NCBI GenBank assembly: GCA_963707365.1
Contig: CAVPPI010000004.1
Location: forward strand, 981,469 to 1,045,468
Source of the DNA: an uncultured candidate division Zixibacteria bacterium
GTDB taxonomy: Bacteria; Zixibacteria; MSB-5A5; GN15; FEB-12
Length of the DNA stretch: 64,000 nucleotides
Reading direction: 5' to 3'
In this document: positions 42,753-61,435 of the stretch, piece by piece
Layout: each line of letters begins with the position of its first letter
Numbering within the stretch: the first letter of the stretch is position 1
The notes under the pieces: model-generated
What the model was told of the DNA's origin: nothing
The model's input: only the letters and a program-made list of their open reading frames with translations
The model's database searches: none
Translations under genes and position numbers: made by a program

Positions 42753-44134
42753 ATGAATCTATCCCCGCAAACCAAAGACACCCCCGTCAGGAATTCAATT
42801 GTCTCTCTTCTATTTACGATAGGGACACTGCTGTGTCTGCTGACGACTGTATCCGCGGGCGAAGGCCCCATTGGGTCAAAGTCATATGATGATTACGACA
42901 CCCCGGACTATTGCGGAAGTTCCTGCCACACTGACTTCTATCAGCAGTGGCGGCAGGCCATGATGTCGCAGTCGTATACTCATCACTGGGATGAGATCGA
43001 GTACTTCAAACTGGCTATCCCCCACGCCGAAAAGGACCCGGTTGTCGCCGAGGTGAAAGCCGGATGTAACGGATGCCATGCCCCGATCTCCTTTCTTACC
43101 GGTGATGTTCCCCCCCGCGCCCCGAAGAGGGCAGCCGGGCTAACGAGGGTGTACAGTGCGACCTCTGCCACACAATTACCGGTCACGAGGGAGACACTCC
43201 GTTCAATTTCAATTTCATTTCCAGTCCCGGAAACGTGAAATATGGTCCCCGCACGGGCGACAACTCCCCGGCGCATGAAATGGCCCAATCCGATTTTCTG
43301 CACACGGCCGAATTCTGTGGCGCCTGTCACAACGAAAAAGACCCCTACGGTATATGGGTGAAATCGACTCACCTTGAATGGAAAGAGGGCCCCTATTCGG
43401 CCCAGGGTGTCATTTGTCAGGATTGCCACATGACCTACGCACCCGGCCAGAGCGCCTCTATGGGAACCGAGTACCCGGATGTCCGCCAGCACCTGTTCCA
43501 CGGCGCCCACGATCCGGGCAAGGTTCGTGGAACTATCGAACTGCGTATTCATCCGGATATTACCGAGGCGGAACCGGGCGAGCCGATCAAGTTTACGATT
43601 GCTCTGTTCAACCAGAAGACCGGGCATAAATTTCCAACCGGCTCGGTTGAGGATCGCATCGTGTGGATGCACGTTGAGGCGACCGATGCTGAAGGCAAAG
43701 TTTATCACCTTCCGGTCGATTTGAAAGGTTTCGAGGGCGAGGAGTATACTGTTGGCGCCGATGTGCTCGCCTATCAGGACATGGGCATCGCCCTCGGTGA
43801 TCCCAATTTCAAGGGCGTGCAGCGCGATGGTATCCCTGTCGGCGATCGCATATTCCGCATGCCTTATTTTGACCCACAGGGACGCATGACTATTCAACAG
43901 TGGAACACAAAGAGCCTTGGTGTGGATTACCGGCTTGGCCCCCGTGAGACCAAACTGGAAACGTGCACCTTCACTCTGCCGGACGACGCCGCCCCGGGAC
44001 CGATGACCGTCAAGGCCACCTTAAACTATCAGAAACTGGTGAAACCGGTGGCTGATTTTCTCGAGGTCCCCGAAGATGAAGCTGAAATCATAGTAGTTAA
44101 CGATCACTTTACTACAATAGAGGTCCTGCCATAA
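42753..44134 (+). CDS. secreted pentaheme c-type cytochrome (cytochrome c554/NrfA-like heme packing plus a C-terminal beta-rich domain), apparent frameshift in the C7 run at 43110-43116
   Basis: AAAGGAGG precedes the ATG at 42753, and a signal anchor (LLFTIGTLLCLLTTVSA) follows. After frame repair there are five CxxCH motifs: CGSSCH, CNGCH, CDLCH, CGACH and CQDCH. The second frame reads ...PPRPEEGSRANEGVQCDLCHTITGHEGD. Confidence 0.75.
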
Positions 44135-44151: not shown

Positions 44152-45343
44152 ATGAAACAACCACTGAAATTGGTTCTCACAGCTGCAGATGGTATTCGGC
44201 ATCACTGCCGCCGCGCTGGTTGTACAGACCGATACGGCTAACGCCATCCCGGCTTTCGCTCGCAAATACTCCATGTCATGTACCACCTGCCACGCACCGT
44301 ATCCGCGGCTCAAAGACTACGGTGATGAGTTTGCCGGTAACGGCTTTACGCTCAAAGATCAGGACGCTCCCCGTTACTATCAGAAAACGGGCGATGAAGA
44401 TCTTGCCCTGATACGAGATCTTCCCTTTGCAATTCGCCTGGAAGGCTTCTTCAAACATCAGACCGAAACCGACAAAGACCTCGACTTCACCACACCGTAC
44501 AATGTCAAACTGCTGTCCGGAGGCGCCCTGTCGAAGAATATCGCCTATTACTTTTACTTTTTCTTCAGCGAGCGCGGCGATGTAGCCGGGCTTGAAGACG
44601 CTTTCCTGATGTTCAACAACGTCTTCAACAGCGAATTGGATATTTATGTCGGTCAGTTCCAGGTATCCGACCCGCTCTTCAAACGTGAACTGCGCCTGAC
44701 CTATGACGACTACCAGATCTATCGAACGACAGTGGGAGCCTCGGATATCAACCTGACTTATGATCGCGGTATCATGCTGACTTACGGATTCGAAAGCGGC
44801 ACCGATGTTATCGTCGAGGTTGTCAACGGTAACGGGTTGGTTGCCGCCGATGATTTCAGAACCTACGACAAGGACAAGTATAAAAACTTCGCAGGACGGA
44901 TATCTCAGGATATCGGCGCCTATGTCAGAATAGGCGGGTTCGGGTACTACGGCAAAGAAGCTCGCTTCGGCAACACCAACGAGGTCTGGATGCTGGCCCC
45001 TGATTTCACCGTCACGCCCAACGACAAACTTACGCTCAACGTGCAATATGTTGAGCGGAGTGATGACAACCCGAACCTTGTCTTGTTGAAACCTGATGAC
45101 GAAGTAAAGACCAGCGGTGCTTTCGCGGAACTGGTGTTCATGCCCGATGGTGAGCGCAGCAAGGTATATGCGGTCGGGCTCTACAACTGGGTCGACTCCG
45201 ACTTCGATGGCGAGGACTATGAGTCCCTCACCGGTCACGTAGGCTACCTGCTGCAAACAAACATCCGGCTGATAGCCGAAGACACTTACGATATTCAGAA
45301 CGAGGAAAATCGTTTTGTGGTCGGATTCATAGCGGCTTTCTAA
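44152..45343 (+). CDS. fused monoheme cytochrome - outer-membrane beta-barrel (Cyc2-like architecture); probable frameshift within the signal peptide (~44185-44190)
   Basis: AAGGAGGAGGAGAAT precedes the ATG at 44152 (MKQPLKLVLTAA). The frame then shifts to ...FGITAAALVVQTDTANA / IPAFARKYSMSCTTCHAPYPRL. There is a single CxxCH right after the cleavage site. About 350 aa of alternating beta-strand pattern follow, ending ...RFVVGFIAAF (terminal Phe). Confidence 0.6.
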
Positions 45344-45496
45344 GTCACACCGGTTTGTTCAAAAAATCAACAAGGGCGGCTTTCACAAGGCCGCCCTTTC
45401 AATTGTCGCACAGCAACTGCGGCATATTCCAGATAATTTCACTACTCATGTCCATTGAATGCGAAAATTTGTCACCCGGTTGCCGATACTATCTGT

Positions 45497-46285
45497 ATGC
45501 GCTACGTTTGCTGGGTCACAGCCACACTGTTCGCATTGGCGTTCGCCTTAACTGCGAAATTCACATTTCACGCTGACAGCGTTTCTTCGGGCGGGCGATT
45601 CGATGATCCTCATCGTGATATTCCGTGCACCGACTGTCATCCCCTGAGAGCCGACGTAAGCTCAGGCGGTCCGGTCAACCGGCAGTTCCGGCAACAGTGT
45701 GAGAAATGTCACGATCCCGGCGCCGCCAATCTGACAGGCATTCCTCTGAATTTCCACAACTCGCGCGAACGGTCATGTTCCGAATGCCACAGCTTTCACA
45801 ACACGGAACAGATATCTCTGGCAAACTCGAGTTTCCTGGTAAGCTTTGAAAACAGTTTCCAGAGGGGACAATGCTATTGTTGCCACGGACCGGGGGAAAA
45901 CATCAAGAGCCTGTCGCCGGGACACAGGGCCGCAGCGGCCATTTTCCATTCGGACTTCGCTGTTCTGGGAAGGCTGAGTTCTTCGCAAACGTGCTTGATA
46001 TGTCATTCCGATGCCAGTGCTCTTCCGGTCGGCGAAATTTCACAATACGCCAAAGGCGCCCCGCGTTTCAAAGAACACGGTAGTCACCCTGTCGGCGTGG
46101 AAGTCATTCCCGGCACCGGCAAACCCGGTAACGCCATCATCGATCCGATTGGCCACAAGATCCAACTTTTCAACAATCGCATGGAATGCTCAAGTTGCCA
46201 CTCACTCTCGGCGGGACACACGCCCTTCAGGCTGGTCTACCCCACCAGAAATGAGTTATGCCGGGCCTGTCATAAAATCGATTAG
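45497..46285 (+). CDS. secreted heptaheme c-type cytochrome
   Basis: The leader is MRYVCWVTATLFALAFALTA (the ORF track gives an alternative TTG at 45455). There are seven CxxCH motifs in ~235 mature residues: CTDCH, CEKCH, CSECH, CYCCH, CLICH, CSSCH and CRACH. Confidence 0.75.
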   Translation: MRYVCWVTATLFALAFALTAKFTFHADSVSSGGRFDDPHRDIPCTDCHPLRADVSSGGPVNRQFRQQCEKCHDPGAANLTGIPLNFHNSRERSCSECHSFHNTEQISLANSSFLVSFENSFQRGQCYCCHGPGENIKSLSPGHRAAAAIFHSDFAVLGRLSSSQTCLICHSDASALPVGEISQYAKGAPRFKEHGSHPVGVEVIPGTGKPGNAIIDPIGHKIQLFNNRMECSSCHSLSAGHTPFRLVYPTRNELCRACHKID

Positions 46286-46320: not shown

Positions 46321-46347
46321 AAGAGGAGAGCTTTTGGCTCTCCTCTT
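46321..46347 (-). terminator. intrinsic terminator of the OmcS-like gene (the hairpin is shared by the convergent genes)
   Basis: A perfect 11-bp stem aagaggagagc/gctctcctctt encloses a 5-nt loop. On the minus strand it is followed by TTTTTTGTG. It begins 34 nt after the stop at 46381. Confidence 0.6.
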
Positions 46348-46380: not shown

Positions 46381-47436
46381 TTAACCACCTTGTACGTGAC
46401 ACTGATTACATACTTCCTGATAACGAGTGCCGTCGCCGTTCTCGCCCCAGTTGGCCGCACCGGTCGCCCAGATAATGCCGAAAGCATTCTGGTTACCGTG
46501 GGCTTTGTGGCAAGACATACAGCTCGGGGTCAGATCAGCAGGAGCGCCGGTCCATGGCGTTCCCCAGTCACCCCAGTCACCGGTCGCACTCATCACCTGA
46601 ACGCGGTAGGCGCGTCCGGAGAACGTAGCGGTGCTCGAGTGACCACCCGTTATGGCGCCAATATTGGCGTCTGCGGTCGGGTGACGATACCATTCGGTCT
46701 GGGTCGGAGCAGCGGCGTTTCTCATGTTAGCGTCGGCTGACGTACCATGGAAATCCGTGTGACAGCCCTGACACCAGGCACCGTAAGCCGAGCCGGTCGG
46801 ATCCGGTTCGTTGAAGAACACGTTCTGAATGTCATAGTGGTCGCCACCAAAGGCGGCCGACGCTTCATAGATGTCCTTCGTCAGGTCATTGGTTCCAACA
46901 GCGTAGCTCAGACCGGGGCCTGATACTCCGCCTGCGGCATAAAGCACATTGCGATAGGGATTGTTGCCCGCGGCAACGAATCCACCATAACCGTGTTGCT
47001 GGTGACAGTCAACGCAACTGAGACCATCGGCGTTGGCGAAAGTACCCCCCGGGGCAACATCCGTCGAACCGAGAGTGTGACCCGTCGCATCGAAATACGG
47101 GGCCGTGTTATCACGGTTCAGGGCGCCTGCCTGGCGGCCGTTCGTCGGAACATTACCGCCATTGGCAGCCAGCACGTCAGGAGCGAATGTCTGATTGTCG
47201 TGACAGGCTAAACAGAGATTGTTTATCTCGTCACGCAACAGAAAATGATACGGACCTGAAGCACCGAGGCCGACCGTGATGCCGGTACCATCGGAATTGT
47301 ACCCGTGAGTCTGACTGTAGTGCATCACGTGGCACTCAGCACAGTTGAGCGATGCACCCGTATGGTAATCGCCGGCAATTGCGCTGGAGGCAAGAAGCGC
47401 GAACGCCGCGATTCCTACCAGGATGAGTTTCTTCAT
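46381..47436 (-). CDS. OmcS-family hexaheme c-type cytochrome (candidate nanowire-forming cytochrome)
   Basis: GGAGG sits 8 nt before the ATG at 47436. The leader is MKKLILVGIAAFALLASSAIA. There are six CxxCH motifs. Motif-for-motif, the order matches my recollection of G. sulfurreducens OmcS: YHTGASLNCAECHVMHYS, LL..x7..CLACH, GH...APGGTF...CVDCHQQHG, AWCQGCHTDFH...RHP, CMSCHKAHG and a C-terminal CNQCH. Confidence 0.75.
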   Translation of the reverse strand: MKKLILVGIAAFALLASSAIAGDYHTGASLNCAECHVMHYSQTHGYNSDGTGITVGLGASGPYHFLLRDEINNLCLACHDNQTFAPDVLAANGGNVPTNGRQAGALNRDNTAPYFDATGHTLGSTDVAPGGTFANADGLSCVDCHQQHGYGGFVAAGNNPYRNVLYAAGGVSGPGLSYAVGTNDLTKDIYEASAAFGGDHYDIQNVFFNEPDPTGSAYGAWCQGCHTDFHGTSADANMRNAAAPTQTEWYRHPTADANIGAITGGHSSTATFSGRAYRVQVMSATGDWGDWGTPWTGAPADLTPSCMSCHKAHGNQNAFGIIWATGAANWGENGDGTRYQEVCNQCHVQGG

Positions 47437-47560
47437 GAGTTTGACCTCCATACCTTTGCTCTTAAAAAGTTAAACTCGTTGAATTATGGTTAATAAGGCT
47501 TAGTTCTGAAAAATGAGAATACGTTTCAGGACGACCAAACTCCCCGAAAGGAGCACAGCA

Positions 47561-47833: not shown

Positions 47834-48860
47834 TCATTTGGTCTCAAAACGCTGGATTCGACTGCCTATTCGCTCTACGATAAAGAAAACTGAGTCATTT
47901 GCCGCCGCGATATCGGCCGGATATCGGAATTCACCGGGGCTAATACCATATCCCCCAACTATTTCACGAAATGTCCCGGAGCTGTCAAAGACTTTTACCA
48001 CCTGCCGAAGGCCATCGGCGACCCAAATGGCTGGCCGCCCTTCCCTATCGGACATAATCTCTATTCCGGACGGAAACGACACGTCGCCGCGCTCAATCTG
48101 ATGACCGCTGAATCCATATAGAAAAGCACCATTGGTATCGAATACTTTGATTGCCGGTTCAGCGTACAGGTCTGTCACGAACAAACGATCCCGCCAGATC
48201 TGAATTCCCAGAGGAGTATTGAACTCAGAAGGTCCCCCGCCTTTTTGACCGATAGTCCTTTTCGAGTTCAAAATACTCATCAAGCACCATTATGGTGACA
48301 ATATCGCCGGTCGTTATGACGTAGAGATTGTCCTCGCTGTCGATAGCGAGGCTCTGCGGCTTTATCGTCAGGGAGGTGTCGCCATAAAGCGTGTTCAGGT
48401 ATACTTTTTGAAGCGATTTGCCCCTGAAATCGAGCACATCCAGATAATCCGCAAGGTTGTCGGAGAGGATTATCTCCCCCAGCTTGTTTACTGCCAGATC
48501 GCGTGGTTCTCCTTTGATCAGTCGACCGGACCGCTGCTCGATAACAAAGTGCTCGAACGAGTATTTGGGGTTGAGCAACTTATCGTATATGACCACCCGG
48601 CCATTGCCGGCATCGGTGACAAAAAGTTCATCGGCCGATTTATCGAAAAAGAGGGAACCGGGGCTGCGAAGGTTCTTCTGCCAACCGTCATCAAAGGCAA
48701 TTGCGGTAATATTGAAGTCGAGGGCCGGTGGTGTGTCCTGTGCTGCAACCGCCACAGGAGATGCCAGACAAAGAAGCAACGAGGCAATAACCACGGGCGC
48801 GACTTTGCGAATCTCAGTTCTTTGAAAACAGATCGGAGAGTTCACTAACGGCATCCTCAA
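47834..48860 (-). CDS. secreted NHL-repeat beta-propeller protein, one apparent frameshift near 48230-48280
   Basis: The signal peptide is VVIASLLLCLASPVAVAAQD. Repeated NHL-type blades include LFVTDAGNGRVVIYD, LAVNKLGEIILSD and LFVTDLYAEPAIKVFD. ORFs 48225-48860 and 47834-48283 are consecutive parts of one gene. Confidence 0.7.
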
Positions 48861-49404
48861 CCATCTTTTTGGCCAGGTTATCGGCCGACCTCACGGCGCC
48901 GATACCGAAGGCAATTTCCCCCTTGTCGCCACGACCGTTGGAATTGGCCACCCATACGGTTTTTTTCGTAGCACAATCGATCAGGCGGCAATTGAACGCA
49001 ACTTCGGGCACCCGTCCCAAAAAGCTGTTATCATATTCTTCATACTCAATCGCAGCTCCTGTCAACAGAAGATCAACACCGAGACTGGCAGCGAGGCTGT
49101 CAATCTGAGCATCGGAAAGCAGCGACGAAGATCTGATTCTGAATTGTCTGAGGCTTTCGTACAATTGGCCGAATTCCACAGTCTCAAACCGGCTCTGTCC
49201 GGCCATGGCGTTCAGAAAATAATCGGTTAGTTTTTCGGCAGCCTTTTCCCTTCCGCTAAGATTCTCAAACGGCAAAACGGCTACTCGAGATGTGGAAGGC
49301 AACTGACTGTCGATGCGTCTTTTGGCCGTCAGATTTGACGCACATCCGGTCAGCATCAATATTATCAGTCCTATCGGAATTGTCCGTGTCAGAATATGGA
49401 ACAT
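48814..49404 (-). CDS. lipoprotein (LpoB/TolB-N-like, VAVLPFENLSG motif)
   Basis: The ATG at 49404 opens MFHILTRTIPIGLIILMLTGCAS, which contains a lipobox L-T-G-C. The VAVLPFENLSGREKAAEKLTDYF motif resembles small periplasmic-face OM lipoproteins. Confidence 0.6.
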   Translation of the reverse strand: MFHILTRTIPIGLIILMLTGCASNLTAKRRIDSQLPSTSRVAVLPFENLSGREKAAEKLTDYFLNAMAGQSRFETVEFGQLYESLRQFRIRSSSLLSDAQIDSLAASLGVDLLLTGAAIEYEEYDNSFLGRVPEVAFNCRLIDCATKKTVWVANSNGRGDKGEIAFGIGAVRSADNLAKKMVEDAVSELSDLFSKN

Positions 49405-49408
49405 ACCG

Positions 49409-50014
49409 TTACCTCGATACTCTGCCGAATGATTCGGCCACTTCATGACACACTTTCGTAGTCATCGCGCCCAGCGTATGGGTTTCCCCGAAGGAAAAGA
49501 CAGGAAACTTGGGACCACCCTTGCGGGTGGTTTCATAGCTCCAGACTACCCGGCCGGTCTGGCAGTCGATAAAACGGACAATCACCGCCACCAGAGGGAA
49601 TTCGTCCTGACCTGAACGCACCATCGTGAAGTCTTTAACGGCGCCCACGAATATGCCCTCGACTTGCGCCTGTTCACCGATAGCCATAGCCTGTTCGCTG
49701 GTCAGTTCATCCAGCGCGTTTACCATATCCTGTTTGACTACCGCCTTAACCACCTTCTCGACATCACCCATGTTGGCCACGGAAACCGTATTGAGCATAA
49801 GCAATTCGGTCACGAAGCTGGAGGTCACTTTGTCGGAAGCATTCTTGTCGGTGGTCAGATTTGAAAACGGCACGACCGCGACGCGCGAATAGAAGCCAAA
49901 ATCGGCCTCGTCGTTGACATACATCCGGTTGCTGCCGCACGATGCGAGCGTTAACAGAAAACCGAAAGCAAGAAAGAGCTTGAGCTTTAACATAGCATTA
50001 CCTGTTTTTTTCAT
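49409..50014 (-). CDS. lipoprotein, paralog-like to the downstream one (VAVVPFSNLT motif; DUF799-like)
   Basis: The lipobox is LTLASCGS. It shares the motif VAVVPFSNLTTDKNASDKVTSSF and the GxxIEG/LLTGAV-type pattern with the 48814-49404 protein. It overlaps the barrel gene stop by 4 nt. Confidence 0.6.
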   Translation of the reverse strand: MKKTGNAMLKLKLFLAFGFLLTLASCGSNRMYVNDEADFGFYSRVAVVPFSNLTTDKNASDKVTSSFVTELLMLNTVSVANMGDVEKVVKAVVKQDMVNALDELTSEQAMAIGEQAQVEGIFVGAVKDFTMVRSGQDEFPLVAVIVRFIDCQTGRVVWSYETTRKGGPKFPVFSFGETHTLGAMTTKVCHEVAESFGRVSR

Positions 50015-51745
50015 ATCTGTATACTTAACACACTTTGAATGGATTCGTTTACTATTTTTTCTCCCAGGGCATCCCGGGTACGGCTGTGCAGGTAGGCCAC
50101 CGAGAGCGTGACTTTCTGCGAAAGATACATCAGGATCTGCCCATTGACCGTACGCGGCCGGGTCTCAATCGATTCGAACTCACCGTCTTCTCCTACAAAA
50201 ATATCCCGCGTCTGTTTCTGTTCGTTGACCGAAAGATATAAATTAAAAGCCCGGCGAAAAGAATAACTGATATAGCCGGTGGCGGAACTCAGGCTGGACC
50301 TGACGGTACTCTTATAATTGCTGTGAATATAGGTGGCGTTCATATTAAGATTGGAGCGGGGCGTAAAAGTCAACCCGGCGTTGTAGTTTTCCGAAAAGGA
50401 CCTGTCGAATCTCAGTCTGTCGCCGATATAGAGCGCCGTTATTCTGAACCTGCCTTCGAGACGCCGCGTGAAATTCACCCTGGTGTCAAGCGAGCGGGTC
50501 AACTGATACCGCCGCTGCTCGTCAACCGGGTCACTATCGTGAGTCAGTGATATGTCTATAAAAGTCTTGATATACTTTCTCGGAAACAGATTCAACGATG
50601 CTTGATATGTATCAAGAATGTAGTCACCGTCGTTGACCGTGGCTATTACCGCTCCCGATGTATCCCTGATCGACACCAGCCTCGTGGACTGCTGGAAAAT
50701 CGTACGATTGAAAGTCAGACGGGTATCCACGCCGCTGCGGAAGTACCGGGTCAGCACCGCCCCGAGATTCGCATATTCCACTATATTATTGTCGCCGTTC
50801 TGACGATTGTTCTGATACCCCTTCCCCGCCTGAAAGCTGAGATAACCGGTCGGCGTGAATTCAGCCACGCCGGACATCGTCTGATTATCGTTCTCAATCA
50901 CCGTCTGCTGCTGTTCCGCCTCAAGAAACCGACCGGAGTAACTCAGATTGACAGAGACTTTATCGATTGCGTTTAGAAGCAACAGCGAGTTTACAGAGTG
51001 AGTGAACGAAGTCTGGTTCAGTATCGAGTGGCTCTCACGGCGCGTATCGTAATAGTTGTAAGTAGCACTGGCGTAGCCGAGACCGACAAGGTTACGATTG
51101 AATCCCACAGTCCCCGAGTAAGTACGGGTGGTGACATCTCTTCCCCCCGGAAGGTTACTGACTTGCCTCAGATTATTGTAGTTGGCCCTGAAAGTCAGCG
51201 GGTCAAGAGAATACGAGCTTTCCAAAACGACGTTACGATTGAAAGCATCAAATTTGGGCTCGAGTCTCTTTGTCGAAATTACTGAAATGTGAATAAACGA
51301 GATTGAAAGTCGGATAGTCGGTATAAGCGAGCTGGGCCGTTATTCGCCAGTCACGATAGTAAACATCGACAAACTCCGTAACGGCAGCTGTATAACTGCG
51401 CCGTTTATAGGGCGAGTAACGGGCGTTGAAGGCATAACCATAGCTCTTGAGATCAAGATAATAGACCGGCTGAAACTCATGATAGTTGGCAAACGATTGC
51501 TCTCGCCGCTGAAGATTGGCCGTCAGACGGATATGGTTCTTATAAAACAGGACATCTTCATAGTTGATGATAGCCGTCTCCCGCGTAATATCATCCTCAT
51601 CGGCTTCGCCGTTTTGCTGTTTGATATGTTCGTACGAAAGAGAAGCGTTCCCGAACAATCGCCCGGCCACAGCGGTATCGCACCATGGACCAACCAGTGC
51701 TGACAGAGAGAATAAAATCGCAAATACAGCGAAGCGATACATCAA
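50011..51745 (-). CDS. large outer-membrane beta-barrel protein (~575 aa), one apparent frameshift near 51225-51250
   Basis: The signal peptide is MMYRFAVFAILFSLSALVGPW. Alternating aromatic/polar strands rich in Y, N, S, T and R run throughout. ORF 51248-51745 ends ...SNFDKE, and the next frame continues RLEPKFDAFNRNVVLESSYSLDP (ORF 50011-51225). No CxxCH is present. Confidence 0.55.
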
Positions 51746-53904
51746 TAGTCTTCTCCCGTAGGATGATGACAGTTAGCGTAACAGGTACTGGTCGTAGCAT
51801 CAACTTCCTCCCAGCCGCTTATGTGACCACCGAAGATGAATGCGTGCGACGGCGCCCCGGCAGTCGGGGAACAGGGAGGAAAGATGTAATTGGAGCCGTG
51901 AATATTCCCGATTCCGGATCCGTTGTCACAGGCAGGATCCTGGTCGTCATCATAGCGCCCGGCATGACAACCGCGGCAGGACTGACCGTTGCGTCCGGCT
52001 CCCCCCGGATCGGTATGGGCGCGACGGTCGTGGTCTGCGAATCGCGATACATTCTCCGAATTGAACACATAGTAGTTTTCATCATGACAGCGCACACAGA
52101 ACTGCCTCTGGGCGCTCGGGAACAGCGTCCCGATAACAGGCTCGCGAAAATACGTCTCGACATACAACATGCCGCTGTTATCACTGCCGTGCCCCGTCGT
52201 TTCATGACAGTCAAAGCAGCTTATCACGTCATGCAAAGCCGTCTGGTTGAACGGCGGCAACATCGTGGCCGTGAAGTTGTTCACCGAACCCGGCACTGTA
52301 TAGGGATTGTTCCCCTGTGCCCGAACCGGGTGATAGGAAGAATTCAGAGGATCGAACTGGGTATATACATCGATAACTGTTGCCGCCGGGTCAGAGAAAG
52401 GCGCCAGCGATGATCCCCCCGGCACCTGTGCTTCAACCGACATAGCGCCGTTGCCGTCGTGACACTTCAGACAGAAAGAATTCTGCACCTCCACCACCCA
52501 ACTTTCAAGAAAGGCGCTGTTCAAATCGCGCGTGAAACTGCTGAAACCGGTAAGGGCCTGACCGTTATCGGGGTCTCTCAGTTCCACAAAACCGTTGGCA
52601 TGATAAGCACCATTGATATCGCCGCTGAACGCGATTCCTTCCATATGGCACACACCGCAGTCATTATTGGTGACCGTGTCGGTCACACCGATAGCATTGA
52701 CATGGTGAGCGTTCAGACCAAACTCACCGAGGATGGCTCGACGCGTACCCCGGGCGGTAGCGTGACACGCTACACAGGAGCCGCCGATACCGGGATTATG
52801 AACGTTATTGGCTGTGGGCGTTGAGTAATCGCGGCCGTGGCACTCGTAGCAATGTTCGGTCGACGCAGCCGTGTGTTCCGTAACAGAGGCCGGCAAAGGC
52901 GGAAGGGTGAGCCCCTCGATAGCATCGGCCTGGGCGACACCATCAGATGACGGATGACAGCCAAAACAGAAGCGCCGGACCTGCGCGTTATCATTACGGA
53001 TGTCTGTCAGCCCGTACCAGCCGGGCCTTTGATCGCTCAGGAGGTAGTTGTTTCCCCCCAACCCGCCGTAACCAATAGAACCGTGCGGGTTGTGACAATC
53101 ATAGCACGGCAGACGCATCCCCGATGTCACATATCCCCCGCCCGTGGTAATTCCGTGCCCGCTACTGGCGTTGGGGTTTATTGATCTGTCATAATAATAG
53201 GCTATCGTGCGTGAGGTATCATCCATACCGACCGGTCCGTCAACACGGTGGCATTCCAGACAGAGGGCATAATTCTCCGCCTCCAGCCCAAGCTGCGAAC
53301 CGGTGATACCGCTATAGGTCGTATCGAGCATATCGTGTGGAGCGACTGTACCGTGCGGATTGTGACAGTTGTCGCAGGAACCGTAACCGAACCAATCTTT
53401 GACAGGCATGTCCTGGTCGGCATAGTGCGGTGAGAAAAGACTGTTCTCCCAGACGACCCGTCCCGGCCACCTCACCCGGTTCTCCAGGCCAGGCAACCGC
53501 GTGCCGCCGCTGTTGAATTCAAAATAACCCGGATCCGATGAACCGATTGGCAGCCGGTCGGATTCCTGAGCCGGATAACCCGCTGTGCCCCCCGTCGGCT
53601 GGTCAGCGTGACAACCGCCTGAAGAAGCAGAAAAACATAGCTCGTTGGAATTGTAAGTAAACAAGCCGTATGGGAACGTATTGTCAGGATCATGGCTCAC
53701 ATGACACTGGGCGCAACTCCCCTGAGGATAATCCGGCGTTCGCAGCACGCCGTTATCAACCGAACCGTGAGGAGATTGCCTATACTGACTGTCATCGGCG
53801 CCGACCGACGCCGCAAACCAGAAAAGTATAGCGCCAAGGGCAACAATCGCCCGGGCGAGGCGCATCGATGAAATGTATCTTATTTGTTGTGACATTGCTG
53901 ACAC
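51742..53904 (-). CDS. secreted multiheme c-type cytochrome, 12 canonical CxxCH plus two atypical motifs
   Basis: The leader is MRLARAIVALGAILFWFAASVGA (an alternative start is at 53865). By direct reading it has 12 CxxCH, a CYANCH (CX3CH) near the C-terminus and NELCFSASSGGCH (CX7CH). The last sits where the hexaheme paralog has NELCLSCH. Confidence 0.8.
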   Translation of the reverse strand: MSAMSQQIRYISSMRLARAIVALGAILFWFAASVGADDSQYRQSPHGSVDNGVLRTPDYPQGSCAQCHVSHDPDNTFPYGLFTYNSNELCFSASSGGCHADQPTGGTAGYPAQESDRLPIGSSDPGYFEFNSGGTRLPGLENRVRWPGRVVWENSLFSPHYADQDMPVKDWFGYGSCDNCHNPHGTVAPHDMLDTTYSGITGSQLGLEAENYALCLECHRVDGPVGMDDTSRTIAYYYDRSINPNASSGHGITTGGGYVTSGMRLPCYDCHNPHGSIGYGGLGGNNYLLSDQRPGWYGLTDIRNDNAQVRRFCFGCHPSSDGVAQADAIEGLTLPPLPASVTEHTAASTEHCYECHGRDYSTPTANNVHNPGIGGSCVACHATARGTRRAILGEFGLNAHHVNAIGVTDTVTNNDCGVCHMEGIAFSGDINGAYHANGFVELRDPDNGQALTGFSSFTRDLNSAFLESWVVEVQNSFCLKCHDGNGAMSVEAQVPGGSSLAPFSDPAATVIDVYTQFDPLNSSYHPVRAQGNNPYTVPGSVNNFTATMLPPFNQTALHDVISCFDCHETTGHGSDNSGMLYVETYFREPVIGTLFPSAQRQFCVRCHDENYYVFNSENVSRFADHDRRAHTDPGGAGRNGQSCRGCHAGRYDDDQDPACDNGSGIGNIHGSNYIFPPCSPTAGAPSHAFIFGGHISGWEEVDATTSTCYANCHHPTGEDY

Positions 53905-54842
53905 CCCGCGATATAATCTAAATCACCTTCAATATATGACCACAGCAACGATTTCTCATCCGAACCGCCGTGGGCCTTGTGACAACTCCCGCAGAATATC
54001 CGATTGGATTCCGCCGGCTGACGCGAGCTAATAAAATCACTTGCCGTTGGTACTTCGAACGGTAACCTGATAATACCATTGGCATCATCAGCGAACCCTT
54101 CCCCCGTTCCGGAAATCCAGTGGGGAACATCCGTATGGCCATCGACTGGAAACTCGTTAATCGCCACATCCACCGGATGGCTATTGAAGTGGGCCGGTGG
54201 TGACGCCACACTATTTGTCTCGAGCTGATTGTGGCAGGAAACGCACCAGGCCGAGTAGGCCTGTCTGTATCCGATGTTGTCCCTGCTGTACGCCGTCGCC
54301 GATCCGCCGGCAGTCGGCGGAATGTCCGGAGAAAATTCAGTGAAGAGATCGCTGCCCTCTTCCAGAACAAGGGAGTCACCCACACCGGCCGGATCGAAAA
54401 GCAAGTTGCGGTAGTTGCCGTTACCGTGCGGAGCGTGACAACTGGCGCAGTTTAACTCTACGAACTGAGCTTCCACTTGAAGGGGCACGATACTCCCCAG
54501 CGCCAGGTTGTGGCCCATCGGATTATCAATGCCGATGATATCAAAATATCCTCCGGCACTCTGGCCGGACAGGGCCGCATCGTACATCTGCACCGGCCGC
54601 ATGATATCCGGCGCTGTCGGATCGGTACCATCATGGCACGACAGGCACAATTCGTTGACAGTATTTTTCAGAAGTAAAGTCGAGAACGGACCGCCGGGTA
54701 GCGGCTCTCCTTCTTTGGAGGCGTGCTGAATGTGACAATCCTGACAGCGTAGATTCGGTTCAACGTGCCACTGCCCGCTCCGTACGCCGGAAGCGATAAA
54801 AAATAATGTAAGCAAAGTCATTGTTCGAGTCATCACAGTCAC
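53880..54842 (-). CDS. OmcS-family-like hexaheme c-type cytochrome, operon-internal paralog
   Basis: The leader is MTLLTLFFIASGV. The six CxxCH motifs follow the same order and spacing logic as the 46381-47436 protein: CQDCHIQH, LLL..x7..CLSCHDG, GHNL...CASCHAPHGNGNYRNLL, AWCVSCH...HP, CGSCHKAHG and a C-terminal CQQCHNK. Confidence 0.7.
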   Translation of the reverse strand: MTVMTRTMTLLTLFFIASGVRSGQWHVEPNLRCQDCHIQHASKEGEPLPGGPFSTLLLKNTVNELCLSCHDGTDPTAPDIMRPVQMYDAALSGQSAGGYFDIIGIDNPMGHNLALGSIVPLQVEAQFVELNCASCHAPHGNGNYRNLLFDPAGVGDSLVLEEGSDLFTEFSPDIPPTAGGSATAYSRDNIGYRQAYSAWCVSCHNQLETNSVASPPAHFNSHPVDVAINEFPVDGHTDVPHWISGTGEGFADDANGIIRLPFEVPTASDFISSRQPAESNRIFCGSCHKAHGGSDEKSLLWSYIEGDLDYIAGCQQCHNK

Positions 54843-54844
54843 CT

Positions 54845-55801
54845 CTATTGCAGCGTGTAGAACAGCAATCTGCCGGTCTCCTCGAGCACAGCCATCCGAT
54901 TGTCTATTGTCCCGAGCATGGCCACCGGACTAATCGTGCTATTTTCGAAAGTCAGTACCGACAGTTGGGTGCCGGTCTGGTCAAAAATGCGAAACTGGCT
55001 GTTGGTATCATCAGCCACCCAGACGAATCCGCGAGTGTCAACCGCCACCGCAGCCGCCTCCCATCCTCTCTGCTCCGATGGCTGATTCCACCCTCCCTGA
55101 TAAAGAAATTTCCCATCGATCGCAAATACCTGCATCGGAAAGTTCTTCTGGTCGGCCACTATCAGTTTGCCGGGCGCCGCGGCAGTCATATACGCCGGGG
55201 CAAGCAACTTACCCTTGCCGGAACCGTCGCGAACAACAATCTCCTTAAATTCCCATTGCTGATCGAACCGGTAGATACAACCTGCATGGCGGTCCAGGAT
55301 AAGATAACTCCCGGTCGGTTCACGGACAATCTGGTCGATAGAGAATTTATCAGAAATACCGTTCAGGTCCGCCACTGTATCAATCACACCGGTATTGTAT
55401 TCATTAACGGCAAATATGATTGTCTTGTTCGCCAACGTGTAAAGAAGACGGGAGTCGGATTCGAAGCAAATAGAGCGAGGTTGTTCAAGTCTTACCTGCT
55501 CTCCCACCGTCCAGAGAAACCGGCCCTCCAAATCTACAATTACAATACGATTTGTGCTGAGGTCACTGATGGCAATCTTTTCGCCGTTCGGAGAGACAGT
55601 CATCGCCGATGGACGGTCGAGTTGGTAACGACCGCCTATCAAAATATGTTGACTCTCAATAGCCTGGGCAAGAGCCACGGAAACGTTTGCCGTGACGACT
55701 ATACCGGCTACGAGTAGCCAGAGGCAGGAGAAATAAGTTGCTATCTTGTACGCAGTGCTCTCCCTGGCCCTTAATGAGACACCGTGTGACAAATGATGCA
55801 C
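54845..55801 (-). CDS. secreted NHL-repeat beta-propeller protein
   Basis: A hydrophobic leader (CLWLLVAGIVVTANVSVALA) is followed by repeated blades: IAISDLSTNRIVIVDLEGRF, YLILDRHAGCIYRFD, LIVADQKNFPMQVFAIDGKF and VWVADDTNSQFRIFD. The start is uncertain because it overlaps the upstream gene end. Confidence 0.7.
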   Translation of the reverse strand: MHHLSHGVSLRARESTAYKIATYFSCLWLLVAGIVVTANVSVALAQAIESQHILIGGRYQLDRPSAMTVSPNGEKIAISDLSTNRIVIVDLEGRFLWTVGEQVRLEQPRSICFESDSRLLYTLANKTIIFAVNEYNTGVIDTVADLNGISDKFSIDQIVREPTGSYLILDRHAGCIYRFDQQWEFKEIVVRDGSGKGKLLAPAYMTAAAPGKLIVADQKNFPMQVFAIDGKFLYQGGWNQPSEQRGWEAAAVAVDTRGFVWVADDTNSQFRIFDQTGTQLSVLTFENSTISPVAMLGTIDNRMAVLEETGRLLFYTLQ

Positions 55802-58800
55802 AGCTTTCTATCTTTTTCAGCCACCAGTATTGCCGCGTAGTCAGACGAGTGTGGAGAGTGGCAACCGACACAGTTGAGAGGCTCCTTGGTCCGCGGGTCT
55901 GTCACACCAACACCCATCGGGTGATAGTGCGTCTCAACAGCACCCTCGTGACAGGTCAGGCAAAGCTCCATTATGTCGGATGTAGCCAGTAAACCGGCAT
56001 TGGTACTCGTATGTGGTTGATGGCAGTTGCCGCAGTCTTCAAAAGCCACGGCGTGTTGATTCTTACCTTTAAATTCCGAACCCTTATGACACGAGAGGCA
56101 CATCGACGGACCCTCTTTGAGAAGAAGACTCGAACCGTACCCGACGTGCGGACCATGACATTGAACACAGCCGTCCGCTTTGGTCAATGGAGCATGTACA
56201 ACAGCATTGGCGGTGGTCTCCAGAAAATCCTCGTGACATGCGAAACACATCTGGTTAACCGGAGCCACGAACTCATGGGCACTCATTCCATCGTGACACG
56301 AAGTGCATTCCCCATCGGCAAACGGAGCGTGCATGTCGGGCAGCAGAAGTCCTTTCGAACCGGCCGGACCGGCGTGAGCCGCGTGGCAGTTCTGGCAATC
56401 GACGCCTTCAAGGCTGAACCCTTTGTGCGCCGTACGCAGGTCGCGCGACGACAGATCGTGACACTGCCCGCAAAGCTCCATCTTGGAGTCAGTCAGCAGA
56501 GCCGTCTGATTTCCGGCATGAGCCACGTGGCAGGCGCCGCAATCTCCATCGGCCACCGGCGCATGCGGAGCACCCTCGGTGATCTGGCGGTTTATATCTT
56601 CGTGACAGGATATACAGAAACTCTCTGCCGGTTTGGTAGTCAGGGCCGGATAGGCCGACGAGTGAGGCTTGTGGCACTCAAGACACTGGCCTTCCTCGAA
56701 CGGGCGATGGTTGACAGCCATCTTCTGCTGGTCTTTTATATCTTCGTGACAGGACACACAGAGCAAACTCCCGTCAAGCCTCAGCAGACCCTTGTAGTCG
56801 GCAGCGTGCAAACTGTGGCAGGAACTGCACTCTTCACCGGCAAACGGAGCATGCTGGTGTTCCAATTCAGCCGATTCCGCCACCGTCTCGTGACACGCAC
56901 CGCAGAGATCCATGGTCGAAGCTACGAGAGCAACTTTGTTATCAGCGCCCTTCTCGTGGCAATCCTCACAACCACCATCGGCAAACGGCGGATGAAGCAT
57001 ATTTCTTACCAGCTTGTCCTGCTCGCTGACGTGCGGATTATGACATTCCAGACAGTCAGCCGTCGTTATATCATACCCCCCGTGAACTGTCGTCAGGGCA
57101 TCATCCACATCATGACACGTTACACAAAGATCCGGAGCGCCGGCAATCACAAAGCCGACATTGTCCGAACCGTGAGCGGCATGGCAGGCATCACATTCGC
57201 CCTGCGCTACCGGAGCGTGGGCATTCTGCTTGCGGAAAGCCTCCTTTAACTCATCGTGACAGGTGTAGCATAAATCGGCGGAGATGCCCGTTAGCTTGGG
57301 AAGCTGACCTACCATCAGTCCACCGACGTTAATTTTGGTCATCCTACCGGTGACAAGCTTGGCTTCATTACCGCCGTGAGGATTGTGACAACCGGCGCAA
57401 TCACTTTCAGCAGCCGGCGTATGAACAAATTCTTTTTCAAGGTCAAGACCTTCATAGTCGTGGCAGGATGCACACAGGTCGTTGTTTCGCGCCGTCAACA
57501 GGTGCAGATTGTCTGCACTGTAGTGCGGCTGATGGCAACCCTGGCAATCATCCACAGCCGGAGCATGAGGATTGGCCATGTTGACTCGCTTATTGATATC
57601 AACGTGGCAGGCAAGACACATCGCAGCACCTTCACCGCGGACCAGATGCGGCGTGTCGCTGTAGTGCGGCAAATGGCAGTCGGAACACTCGCCGGTCAGG
57701 TATGGCTGATGCCCCGAGGAGGCATTCAACGCCTCGCGGTCAGGTTCGTGGCATTCCCCGCACAACTGCGCCGACGGAGCTTTCAGAAGCCCCTCGGGAG
57801 TCCCCTCGTGAGGCTTGTGGCAGCCGAGACAGTCATCGAGGGCGGCATGAACGTTCGAGGCAGCATCGCGCGCAGCGGCAAAATCTTTATGACAACCAAG
57901 ACACAGCGAAGCATCGTCGGCCTTCGCCAACGAAGCATTATCAGAACCGTGTACCTCGTGACACCCACTGCATTCACCGGTCACTACCGGCATATGCGGC
58001 CTCTGACCACCTCCGGTCAATACCGCGTCGTGGCACTCACCGCACAGAGTTCGCTGGTCCGCCTTGAGAAGATTGCCGAACCGCGATGAGTGCGCAGTGT
58101 GGCAATTGTCGCAATTGTCAGCCTCGACAGCGGGATGAGGATGCGATTTGGAGATATTGTCAACGATACCATCATGACAGGCCGAACACAGTTCACCCAC
58201 CGATATTCCCTCTTCAAAAGCTACTTTTCCATCGGCATCAGGAAGAGAGTGACAGGTCTCGCACTCACCCGAAGCAAACGGCGCATGAGCATCATCGGCG
58301 AGCAAACCTTTTGTATTCGAGGCATGGGCGGCATGGCAATCACTGCAAGGCAGGTCTCCCGCATTGCGTTCTTTGTGTACGCTCACCCAGGTTTCATCGG
58401 ATTGATCATGGCAGGAACCGCACAGACTGTTGATTTCGGCCGTGAGAAGGCCGGGGTAACTGCTGTTGTGAGAAGTATGGCAGGTCAGGCACTCCATCTG
58501 GTCGTACGGGGCGTGGATGAATTCTTTCGCGCGGGCGGCATCCATATTGTCCTGGTGGCACATTAAACAGAAATGCTCCACCGGCGCATCGGCGGCCGGC
58601 TCCCAGAGCATACCGGTTTCGTTGGAACCGTGCGGATTATGGCAATCCCAGCATTTGCCGGAGGCAACCGGGAAGTGTACGCTTCCCTGGCTGTACTTTT
58701 CTTTGAGGTCGGCGTGACAACTATAACACAATTCGGACGTAACGTCCTGAAGGATCAGCTTCTGAGCAAAGCCGTGGCGTTTGTGACAACTCTCGCAGTT

Positions 58801-58968
58801 CTCGTCTTTGATCGGCTTGTGCGCAAATTTCACAGCCGAATAAACCTGCTTTTCTTTCTGGTGACAGTCGTAACATGTCTTTGCCGCAAACGCAGACGTG
58901 GCAAAAGCCAACGTGATTACAATGGTAAAGCTGATCGCTGTTTTGTATGTGACAAGTGTCCGCCGCAC
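55771..58968 (-). CDS. giant secreted multiheme c-type cytochrome with 42 CxxCH motifs (paired-CXXCH repeat architecture)
   Basis: The leader is ISFTIVITLAFATSAFA. I counted 42 CxxCH in 1065 aa by hand, about one per 25 residues. They are arranged as ~21 repeats of LCxxCH-(~15-20 aa with HxP)-CxxCHxxH. Confidence 0.9.
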   Translation of the reverse strand: MRRTLVTYKTAISFTIVITLAFATSAFAAKTCYDCHQKEKQVYSAVKFAHKPIKDENCESCHKRHGFAQKLILQDVTSELCYSCHADLKEKYSQGSVHFPVASGKCWDCHNPHGSNETGMLWEPAADAPVEHFCLMCHQDNMDAARAKEFIHAPYDQMECLTCHTSHNSSYPGLLTAEINSLCGSCHDQSDETWVSVHKERNAGDLPCSDCHAAHASNTKGLLADDAHAPFASGECETCHSLPDADGKVAFEEGISVGELCSACHDGIVDNISKSHPHPAVEADNCDNCHTAHSSRFGNLLKADQRTLCGECHDAVLTGGGQRPHMPVVTGECSGCHEVHGSDNASLAKADDASLCLGCHKDFAAARDAASNVHAALDDCLGCHKPHEGTPEGLLKAPSAQLCGECHEPDREALNASSGHQPYLTGECSDCHLPHYSDTPHLVRGEGAAMCLACHVDINKRVNMANPHAPAVDDCQGCHQPHYSADNLHLLTARNNDLCASCHDYEGLDLEKEFVHTPAAESDCAGCHNPHGGNEAKLVTGRMTKINVGGLMVGQLPKLTGISADLCYTCHDELKEAFRKQNAHAPVAQGECDACHAAHGSDNVGFVIAGAPDLCVTCHDVDDALTTVHGGYDITTADCLECHNPHVSEQDKLVRNMLHPPFADGGCEDCHEKGADNKVALVASTMDLCGACHETVAESAELEHQHAPFAGEECSSCHSLHAADYKGLLRLDGSLLCVSCHEDIKDQQKMAVNHRPFEEGQCLECHKPHSSAYPALTTKPAESFCISCHEDINRQITEGAPHAPVADGDCGACHVAHAGNQTALLTDSKMELCGQCHDLSSRDLRTAHKGFSLEGVDCQNCHAAHAGPAGSKGLLLPDMHAPFADGECTSCHDGMSAHEFVAPVNQMCFACHEDFLETTANAVVHAPLTKADGCVQCHGPHVGYGSSLLLKEGPSMCLSCHKGSEFKGKNQHAVAFEDCGNCHQPHTSTNAGLLATSDIMELCLTCHEGAVETHYHPMGVGVTDPRTKEPLNCVGCHSPHSSDYAAILVAEKDRKLCIICHTVSH

Positions 58969-58977
58969 AACTACCTC

Positions 58978-59436
58978 TCACTTTCTGGCTGGCGCCGTGA
59001 TGTATTTCTCACTCACCTTGAAGTCGACAAGCTTGAAAGCCAGAAGATCATCACGCTTGAAATGAGGTGACGTCAAGACGTAAAAACCCCAGCTCTCCTG
59101 CTTAATCTCACCTTCAAACGAAACCCTGACCCTCACCGCCGGATTGTACAAAGTATCAGACATCTGCAAAGCTTCACCCGTCTGCGTTATTCCCAGATGG
59201 GGATTAAAGCCTATGACAGTTGCCTCATACTCCTCCTCACCAATATAAAACGGTTGCTCCATTCCGACAGTATCAAATTGCACAAATTCGGGATAAAGCC
59301 TGTGGCGGGTCTCAATAATAAAATACTCTACTTCCGAGCTTACATCGGTGGAATCGGCCTCTTCGGCACAAACTTGAGAGGATGACATGAAGATCGGAAG
59401 GATGCCAAAAATTAACGGTGCGATATACTTATTCAT
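58978..59436 (-). CDS. small secreted protein of unknown function, first gene of the cytochrome operon
   Basis: The 152-aa ORF has the signal peptide MNKYIAPLIFGILPIFMSSSQVCA and no heme motif. I recognise no family. It ends 9 nt before the 42-heme gene. Confidence 0.55.
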   Translation of the reverse strand: MNKYIAPLIFGILPIFMSSSQVCAEEADSTDVSSEVEYFIIETRHRLYPEFVQFDTVGMEQPFYIGEEEYEATVIGFNPHLGITQTGEALQMSDTLYNPAVRVRVSFEGEIKQESWGFYVLTSPHFKRDDLLAFKLVDFKVSEKYITAPARK

Positions 59437-59482: not shown

Positions 59483-59510
59483 AAAATAACAAATTTTGTC
59501 CTGTTGTCAA
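59483..59510 (-). promoter_or_regulatory. candidate sigma70-type promoter of the nine-gene cytochrome operon
   Basis: Read on the minus strand: TTGACA (59510-59505), a 16-nt spacer, then TATTTT (59488-59483). A second TTGACA lies 20 nt further upstream. The element is ~45 nt upstream of the ATG at 59436. Confidence 0.35.
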
Positions 59511-59676: not shown

Positions 59677-61435
59677 TCACAGCATGAGCTGTCTGCTGGC
59701 CAGTTCCCGGTACAAAGTGGATGACTTCAGCAGGCCGTCGTGGGTCCCCTGGTCGACAATGCGCCCCTTATTCATCACCACAATCCGGTCAGCATGGCGG
59801 ACAGTGGCCAAACGATGCGCCACGATAATGGCCGTCTTTTCCTTGAGCAACTGGCTCAGCGCCTGCTGAATAAGCTCTTCAGATTTTGAGTCGAGAGATG
59901 AAGTAGCCTCGTCGAGCAAAATAACCGGCGGGTCTTTAAGCACGGCGCGGGCCAGACACAAGCGTTGTTTCTCGCCGCCTGAGACCGTGACACCCCTCTC
60001 GCCTATCTCTGTGTCATAGCCGTTCTTCTGACTAATGATGAAGTCATGGATATTCGCTATCCGCGCCGCCTTTTCTACAACATCCATTGCTGCCCCGGGG
60101 TCGGCATAAGCGATATTATCCCGGATTGACATCTTAAAAAGCAACGGATCCTGATCCACCAGACTCATCAAGCCGCGAAGGGCTTTGAGATCAATCTGCC
60201 TCAGGTCAACACCGTCGAGCGACACCGAACCGGAATCCGGGTCGAAAAAGCGCATAATCAGATTGATCAGTGTCGTCTTCCCTGCGCCCGACGGTCCCAC
60301 TATGGCTACGGTTTCGCCGGGATTGATGTCGAGCGACAGATTCTCGATACCAAAGTCGGAGTCGTGGTGACGATAATTAACATTGCTCAGTCTGATAGCA
60401 CCGCGCACATCCCGAAGCGCCACCGGCTGAGAAGCTTGTTCTACGGCAGGCGGAAGTTCAAGATACTCAAACACCCGGTTTACCGATGCCATCGCTATCT
60501 GAATATTTACGTTTATCGAAGCAAGGTCCTGCACCGGACCGTATAGATAGGCCAGAAGCATGTAAAATGCCATCAGGGCGCCAAGTTTCATCGTTCCAAC
60601 AGCAATCAGGTAAGTACCCCACGCCAGAACAATAACAGGTCCCAGCATATTGAGAAAGTAAACGAAATTGTTTGCCAGACGAGCTAACGATGGCGCTCTG
60701 TATATACAATCCCCTGAGGCGCACCAGAAGACCGGTCACTTTGTCGGTCTCCGCATCTTCCTGACCAAAAGCCCGAACAGTTCTTAGCCCCCCCAGTGAT
60801 TCCTGCAACCGTCCCTGAAAAGACGCTATTGTCTCCTGTAGCTTTCTGGCAATACCGTGAGCTTTAACGCCAAAGAAATTGGAGAAGACGATTGTCAACG
60901 GCACCGGAGCCAGGGCCACCAGCGTAAGTTTCCAATCCACGAAGAGCAAATAGACCAGGATACCAACCAGAAGGAGGATATTCTGAAGAAACCTGAGCAA
61001 AGTTGAGGCCAGAAGATTCTGGATTCTGGAGGCATCGGAAAGAATACGCGAGATAATTTCGCCCATCTGGTGCTGCTGATAGAAACGAAATGAAACCGTC
61101 TCAAGATGCGCAAACAACTCTATCCGTATGTCATTAATTAGTGACGCTCCGATCCTGGTAGCAAGGTAGTCCTGCGCCAGGGAGAATATGACTCTGAAAA
61201 AGTAAATACCAATCAGGACAATGCCGAAAAGCAGAGCCGGTGTCCAATCGATGCCGTTCGCGGCGGTCTCAACCAGATGCGGAATGAGGTCATCGATCAT
61301 GTACTGCACCGAGGCAGGCAAGGCCAGAGCCAGGGCAGCCAGAATCATCATGACCACAAAGGTTATTAGCTGAAGGTGCCAGTATGGCCTCAGATACCCC
61401 CAGAGACGTCTCCGTACGATTTTATCAGGAAGCAT
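59677..61435 (-). CDS. ABC transporter, fused permease/ATPase (MsbA/exporter type), one apparent frameshift near 60650-60700
   Basis: The N-terminal six-helix TMD is in ORF 60467-61435. The NBD in ORF 59677-60648 has Walker A GPSGAGKTT, signature VSGGEKQRL and Walker B ILLDEATS. Confidence 0.8.

Follow-up and report, generated by a model that had tools for sequence, protein, structure and literature searches.

The locus considered here bears on the question of how filaments of OmcS-type multihaem cytochromes leave the cell, a step that recent reviews still call speculative (PMC12307469). It lies in a stretch of 64,000 nucleotides (called the window; all coordinates refer to it) from an uncultured candidate division Zixibacteria bacterium (GenBank assembly GCA_963707365.1, contig CAVPPI010000004.1, positions 981,469 to 1,045,468 of the forward strand), in which four genes between 47834 and 51745 encode an outer-membrane beta-barrel, two small lipoproteins (lipoA and lipoB) and a beta-propeller with NHL repeats. 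A first-pass annotation, made from the DNA letters alone, had proposed these genes as an export or anchoring platform for the OmcS-like cytochromes encoded next to them. For Geobacter this idea is already in print: according to PMC13194489 (2026, citing Shen et al. 2025), omcS is part of the omcS-companion (osc) operon, OscE, OscF and OscG are proposed to act in OmcS secretion, OscH in folding and OscD in nanowire morphology. The question is therefore less open than the first-pass annotation implied, and its proposal is largely supported by the homology to OscE, OscF and OscG described below while losing its novelty. Shen et al. 2025 (Cell Chem Biol 32:239) reportedly describe the osc cluster of G. 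sulfurreducens. Here, we find that the Zixibacteria operon, judged by sequence homology, is an osc cluster of the kind described for Geobacter, in a compact variant from another phylum, because the lipoproteins, the barrel, a 42-haem cytochrome and both hexahaem cytochromes match osc or OmcS counterparts. The kind of system is already published and the cluster reveals no new one. In our reading, barrel, lipoA and lipoB are probably the Zixibacteria counterparts of OscE, OscF and OscG, and would form an outer-membrane module for the export or anchoring of OmcS-like cytochromes.

For the comparison with osc clusters, 78 loci with OmcS homologues were fetched with an OmcS fragment verified against PDB 6EF8, 38 of them with full flanks. 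The loci come from species other than G. sulfurreducens (best 70% identity), and a search with the OscF family returned no G. sulfurreducens entry among the 120 matches listed. In Geomonas and many others, the genes are arranged in the order NHL-like propeller, OmcS and its paralogues, a lipoprotein of ~470 amino acids (aa), a ~750-aa protein with a signal peptide, a ~200-aa lipoprotein, a ~400-aa lipoprotein, a ~600-aa protein and a 26-haem cytochrome. Pfam assigned the 470-aa product to YncE-like propellers, the 200-aa product to GNA1162/LpoB-like proteins and the 600-aa product to peptidyl-prolyl isomerase (PPIase)/SurA-like proteins. From gene position and the published tags (oscC = GSU2501, oscI = GSU2495) we infer that these positions correspond to OscD to OscI, and the letters are used in this sense throughout. 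The E, F and G positions co-occur beside OmcS homologues in at least 27 of the 38 fully flanked loci.

Both small lipoproteins annotated after the barrel were found as described: lipoA (49409..50014, minus strand; alternative start at 49993) carries the lipobox LASC, lipoB (48814..49404, minus strand) the lipobox LTGC, and the motif VAV[LV]PF[ES]NL[ST] said to be common to them is present as VAVVPFSNLT and VAVLPFENLS. The resemblance extends well beyond this motif (23% identity over 175 aa, E 9e-12), and the two proteins are true paralogues. A hidden Markov model (HMM) of the OscF position matched lipoA with an E value of 7.6e-33 and an HMM of the OscG position matched lipoB with an E value of 7.5e-35, both matches being reciprocal. 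The alignment of lipoA with the OscF-position proteins is full-length, with 14 invariant columns, and includes the lipobox cysteine. OscG-position proteins consist of two tandem copies of the domain (~375-456 aa); lipoB, a single domain of 196 aa (192-198 aa in all Zixibacteria relatives), matches both halves and is closest to the C-terminal one, to which the OscG-position HMM aligned it. The fold of the two paralogues is PelC-like: in profile searches against the PDB the best match was PelC for lipoA/OscF (5.2e-8) as well as for lipoB and the C-terminal OscG domain (9e-4), and the AlphaFold2 (AF2) model of lipoA superposed on PelC with a template modelling (TM) score of 0.73-0.79 in Foldseek, with GNA1162, LpoB and CsgG ranking lower. 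GNA1162/DUF799, LpoB and CsgG share the broad alpha/beta lipoprotein fold superfamily with lipoA and lipoB, with Pfam matches that are weak and below thresholds. A curli-type assignment was rejected, as the CsgG matches (13.8 and 18.9 bits) lie below the Pfam cut-off of 20.8 and are weaker than those to PelC, and the partner genes are absent; CsgG differs, moreover, in that it forms the membrane channel itself, with CsgE and CsgF, and the operon contains no curli genes.

The PelC-like fold raises the question of the cargo. PelB is a 16-stranded barrel with a TPR region. Twelve PelC lipoproteins assemble into a ring that sits on the PelB barrel at its periplasmic rim (PMC12141448), and the PelB-PelC system (PDB 9H80, 5T10, 5T11) resembles the Zixibacteria genes in that PelC-fold lipoproteins are encoded beside an outer-membrane barrel. 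One might thus imagine a Pel-type exopolysaccharide exporter in which lipoproteins and barrel export a matrix polymer that accompanies the cytochromes; PelC is the best match of both lipoproteins by profile and by fold, and relatives bear the name 'polysaccharide biosynthesis protein PelC' in some database sources. However, neither in the operon nor in its relatives is any gene for polysaccharide synthesis or modification, pel synthesis genes included, called or on record, and the barrel with its ~28 strands and no TPR match differs from the architecture of PelB. Two paralogous lipoproteins are present here instead of one, their closest counterparts are at the OscF and OscG positions, they always lie between cytochrome genes, and the cargo would be a haem protein rather than a cationic polysaccharide. 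We consider a Pel-type exporter highly improbable. A match to polysaccharide export, named in the first-pass annotation as an outcome that would speak against its proposal, was obtained at the level of the fold of the lipoproteins only, with no other Pel feature present.

The barrel (50011..51742, minus strand) has a signal peptide, and no CxxCH motif was found in it by a motif scan, as had been annotated; the ~575 aa ascribed to it are reached only when the gene is read through a one-base frameshift near 51262. No Pfam family matched it, whether MtrB/PioB-type, TPR or other. The AF2 model of an intact relative with 83% identity (P0001; predicted local distance difference test score, pLDDT, 91.4) is all-beta with ~28 long strands. 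Foldseek searches with this model returned generic large outer-membrane barrels only, at no more than 12% identity, MtrB being the best (TM 0.50/0.46), followed by LptD (0.40). An LptDE assignment of the module was rejected, since the match is weaker than that to MtrB and the partner genes are absent. Profile-profile comparison by hhalign linked the barrel with the OscE-position family at a probability of 95.1% in local mode (E 3.3e-8) and 98.8% in global mode, end to end, while the controls gave 3% (reversed) and 0% (columns shuffled). A family of intermediate barrels of 520-560 aa connects the two, matching OscE with 99.3% (E 3e-20) and the Zixibacteria barrel with 100%. The barrel gene is located directly upstream of lipoA, that is, in the same position as OscE relative to OscF, and its product is ~190 aa shorter than OscE. 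By these profile comparisons, the barrel is remotely homologous to the barrel at the OscE position. Its N-terminus also recurs elsewhere: the N-terminal ~190 aa of an 820-aa protein in another context (L085:1672-4134) match the N-terminus of the barrel family (E 2.8e-9), and this protein, which has NHL-repeat Pfam matches on record, adjoins a B12-binding radical SAM gene.

The geometric likeness to MtrB makes a second function worth weighing, namely that of a porin-cytochrome conduit modelled on MtrAB or on Geobacter Omb/Oma/Omc, in which the barrel permanently sheathes a multihaem cytochrome (the 12-haem protein or part of the 42-haem protein) and conducts electrons, with no export of protein. 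Besides the best TM score of the barrel model, this would suit the one-base overlap between the start of the barrel gene and the stop of the cytochrome gene upstream of it, and the fact that in every context read the barrel lies within a cytochrome operon. The barrel is likewise comparable to that of MtrAB (PDB 6R2Q) in being large and lying in a multihaem cytochrome operon. The absence of any Pfam match, MtrB/PioB-type or other, and the generic nature of the Foldseek matches nevertheless argue against a conduit, and neither an MtrA-like nor an MtrC-like partner was identified. PelC-like lipoproteins set the present module apart as well; we know of no porin-cytochrome cluster that contains them, and a conduit would leave their presence unexplained. 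Finally, the barrel homologue OscE is proposed to serve OmcS secretion and not conduction. A conduit is thus an unlikely function of this barrel. Most OmcE and OmcS gene regions contain large beta-barrels, and a porin-type route has been favoured for them (bioRxiv 10.1101/2025.10.22.684050). The OmcE clusters of Desulfuromonadia in that study, in their minimal form, resemble the Zixibacteria operon in the outline of their list of parts: a nanowire subunit, two multihaem cytochromes, two beta-propellers and a large beta-barrel. Their subunit is the tetrahaem OmcE instead of an OmcS-like hexahaem protein, their propellers are lipoproteins, and PelC-like lipoproteins are not mentioned there.

If barrel, lipoA and lipoB correspond to OscE, OscF and OscG, their neighbours should be read together with them. 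All four genes belong to a cytochrome operon of ~13 kb on the minus strand, which extends from ~59510 to 46321 and encodes, in 5'->3' order, a 152-aa protein, the 42-haem cytochrome, NHL propeller 2, hexahaem cytochrome 1, the 12-haem cytochrome, the barrel, lipoA, lipoB, NHL propeller 1 and hexahaem cytochrome 2. The first gene is preceded by the minus strand's best match to a sigma-70-like promoter (59483..59510; a consensus match only), and an intrinsic-terminator-like hairpin of 11 pairs followed by a T run (46321..46347, minus strand) ends the operon. The four genes had been placed at the distal end of the cytochrome operon; they are internal to it, because the second hexahaem gene (46381-47451) and then the terminator (46347-46321) lie downstream. 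The 4-nt overlaps ascribed to the genes apply to barrel and lipoA (ATGA), and there only with the longest open reading frame (ORF) start of lipoA, whereas lipoA and lipoB are separated by a 4-nt spacer (taa-cggt-ATG).

Two of the cytochromes are OmcS-like. Hexahaem cytochrome 1 (cyt320, 320 aa, 53880..54842, minus strand) and hexahaem cytochrome 2 (cyt356, 356 aa, 46381..47451, minus strand, the last gene of the operon) each contain six CxxCH motifs; OmcS is the sole PDB match of the former and the best PDB match of the latter, and an OmcS-family HMM built from 95 ORFs matched them with E values of 2.7e-14 and 5.7e-15, respectively. The histidine three residues after the first haem motif (CxxCHxxH in cyt320), at the position of OmcS His16, is kept in both. 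The 12-haem cytochrome (720 aa, 51742..53904, minus strand) was not matched by the OmcS-family HMM over its full 720 aa, and its short relatives obtained marginal scores only. Its first half corresponds to a hexahaem gene of 361-366 aa that takes this place in more distant relatives (60-64% identity), and the second six-haem half is an extension found only in this subclade. The 42-haem cytochrome (1065 aa, 55771..58968, minus strand) was assigned to the OscI position, the gene after OscH, by phmmer (E values down to 1.4e-128 with the 26-haem proteins there). It also matches the OscJ-position cytochromes more weakly, and as cytochromes of both positions are matched, a fusion or expansion is suggested. 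Directly upstream lies the gene for the 152-aa protein (58978..59436, minus strand), which has a signal peptide, no Pfam match and no assigned function. It occupies this place beside the giant cytochrome in all nine clusters that have that end on the contig, in any gene order, and may be a dedicated partner or chaperone of that cytochrome.

An NHL propeller does follow the lipoproteins (NHL propeller 1, 47834..48854, minus strand; Pfam NHL 1.6e-8, DUF5128 2.3e-8; secreted, with no canonical lipobox), its ORF being itself split near 48255, and the second propeller reported between the 42-haem and hexahaem genes is likewise confirmed by the ORF list and Pfam (NHL propeller 2, 318 aa, 54845..55801, minus strand; Pfam NHL 1.3e-6). 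The first propeller had been counted as the tail of a four-gene unit. It pairs instead with the OmcS-like gene that follows, hexahaem cytochrome 2, after a gap of 382 nt, just as NHL propeller 2 lies directly upstream of hexahaem cytochrome 1, a position conserved in relatives; the operon thus holds two pairs of an NHL gene and an OmcS-like gene. The statement that NHL-repeat genes neighbour omcS holds for OmcS homologues outside G. sulfurreducens, as an NHL-like ORF adjoins the homologue in 32 of the 38 fully flanked loci.

Conservation was examined with a barrel profile searched against 1.84 billion representatives, which returned only 88 relatives; those that carry a source name are from uncultured genomes of Zixibacteria or of the FCB (Fibrobacteres-Chlorobi-Bacteroidetes) group. 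Eight other contexts were read, from 83% barrel identity down to an E value of 2.8e-7. The co-occurrence of the genes with cytochromes in other genomes, on which the first-pass annotation had made its proposal depend, was found in every case: in all eight the barrel lies inside a cytochrome operon, flanked by a hexahaem-type cytochrome gene on one side and by two lipoproteins of ~195 aa on the other, and NHL propellers, a ~1050-aa multihaem cytochrome and a small ~150-aa protein are encoded as well. As it recurs in these eight contexts down to such low barrel similarity, the arrangement is more than chance. The most distant clusters, on metagenome contigs (L086 and L087), run NHL propeller, cytochrome, cytochrome, barrel, lipoprotein, lipoprotein, 160-aa protein and giant cytochrome; with barrels of 520-560 aa and the canonical osc order, and neither OscD nor OscH, they form a link between OscE and the Zixibacteria barrel in profile comparisons.

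Whether this particular genome still makes the apparatus depends on how its frameshifts are interpreted. The barrel is distributed over two ORFs in different frames, 51745->51251 (N-terminal 165 aa) and 51339->50014 (C-terminal 442 aa), and one extra base near 51262 was placed with the intact relatives P0001 (573 aa) and P0009 by tblastn and DNA alignment; intact barrel relatives measure 557-593 aa. The break in NHL propeller 1 near 48255 was located by DNA alignment with the orthologue from a related Zixibacteria genome (L079). Further breaks affect an ABC transporter near 60670 and a 460-aa secreted protein near 43120 (43112-43136), so that, compared with intact orthologues in L079, four genes in ~20 kb are frameshifted; the three of them that were aligned at the DNA level have one extra base each. 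Were these real mutations, the locus would be a decaying, non-functional copy, for which the number of broken genes would speak, as would the occurrence of a 404-aa barrel fragment (P0002) in public protein records. Yet both sides of each break are 66-95% identical to the orthologue and free of further stops, and the breaks in the unrelated transporter and secreted protein suit assembly errors in a contig of 1.05 Mb better than they suit targeted decay. As each break is flanked by well-conserved coding sequence and unrelated genes are also hit, the four frameshifts are probably assembly errors, and decay appears rather unlikely.

Set against the osc cluster as a whole, the Zixibacteria operon shares the barrel, a ~200-aa lipoprotein and a second, related lipoprotein in that order, with homology of all three proteins to their OscE, OscF and OscG counterparts, and OmcS-family hexahaem cytochromes, an NHL-like propeller and a giant multihaem cytochrome adjoin. 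It differs in the length of the barrel (~575 aa versus ~750 aa for OscE), in the 42 haems of its OscI-like cytochrome, which leads the operon, in its two pairs of NHL and OmcS-like genes and in its host, which belongs to the FCB group and not to Desulfobacterota, Nitrospirota or Myxococcota. The layout of the operon was retained in each of the eight other contexts.

From the homologies, folds and conserved gene order observed here, a working model of the module can be drawn, in which the formation of a ring, the nature of its cargo and a role in export rather than in electron conduction would follow by analogy. The ~28-stranded barrel would serve as the outer-membrane pore. The two PelC-fold lipoproteins, anchored in the inner leaflet, would be arranged in a ring at the barrel's periplasmic rim, like the PelC dodecamer on PelB; given PelC-like lipoproteins and the PelC ring on PelB, the most economical model is a wide barrel that carries a ring of mixed lipoA and lipoB. 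The ring would take up OmcS-like hexahaem subunits, folded or partly so, and guide them into the barrel, which would export them and where the growing cytochrome filament may be held. Electrons would probably be delivered from the periplasmic side by the 42-haem OscI-like cytochrome, and each NHL propeller may act as the secreted partner of the OmcS-like gene downstream of it.

Several points weigh against this reading and are given here together. The barrel and the OscE-position proteins found no match in phmmer or hmmsearch, being linked by profile-profile comparison only, and their identity is only ~13%. The Osc letters themselves follow from gene position in non-model genomes, not in G. 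sulfurreducens. HMMs of the OscD and OscH positions (38 and 32 sequences) had no match among the ORFs of the window, which accordingly lacks genes for the YncE-like propeller lipoprotein and the PPIase/SurA-like protein, and the OscG equivalent carries a single PelC-like domain where OscG has two; with OscD and OscH missing from the window and OscG half-sized, the machine may work differently. Its function is carried over by analogy from Geobacter across phyla, where it is itself described as proposed, and the picture of a ring on a barrel is borrowed from PelB-PelC. Should the frameshifts in barrel and propeller be real, this genome may carry an inactive module.

The probable identity of the module with OscE, OscF and OscG has consequences nonetheless. 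With this variant, the conserved core of the proposed machine shrinks to the barrel and the PelC-fold lipoproteins, with the PPIase and the YncE-like propeller appearing dispensable or encoded elsewhere, and the solved PelBC complex offers a concrete, testable structural template. To judge from the genes, OmcS-type extracellular electron transfer likely extends to Zixibacteria, a widespread uncultured group of sediments and the subsurface that is suspected of iron cycling (PMC8478452). More tentatively, and with rather less than even confidence, we suggest that NHL propeller, OmcS-like subunit, ~28-stranded barrel, a mixed ring of two single-domain PelC-like lipoproteins, ~150-aa protein and giant cytochrome may make up a minimal, self-sufficient export machine for OmcS-type nanowires outside the classic metal reducers that has no need of OscD or OscH. 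If so, it would place cytochrome nanowires in Zixibacteria, within the FCB group, and would define the most compact set of genes for transplantation, or for structural work on a PelBC-like secretion system for protein filaments.

Two neighbouring loci flank the operon. Just upstream, an ABC transporter (permease and ATPase, 585 aa when intact) is encoded at 59677-61435 on the minus strand; it is found at the same place in the two closest relatives (L079 and L080), there with an adjoining radical SAM/SPASM gene. The transporter and radical SAM genes are outside the conserved core, because more distant clusters are without them. Beyond the terminator, a convergent gene pair (44189-46285, plus strand) that is conserved in L079 comprises the gene of a 7-haem cytochrome and that of a 384-aa protein, which matches no Pfam family and carries one CxxCH close to its N-terminus; the pair may represent a separate outer-membrane electron-transfer unit.

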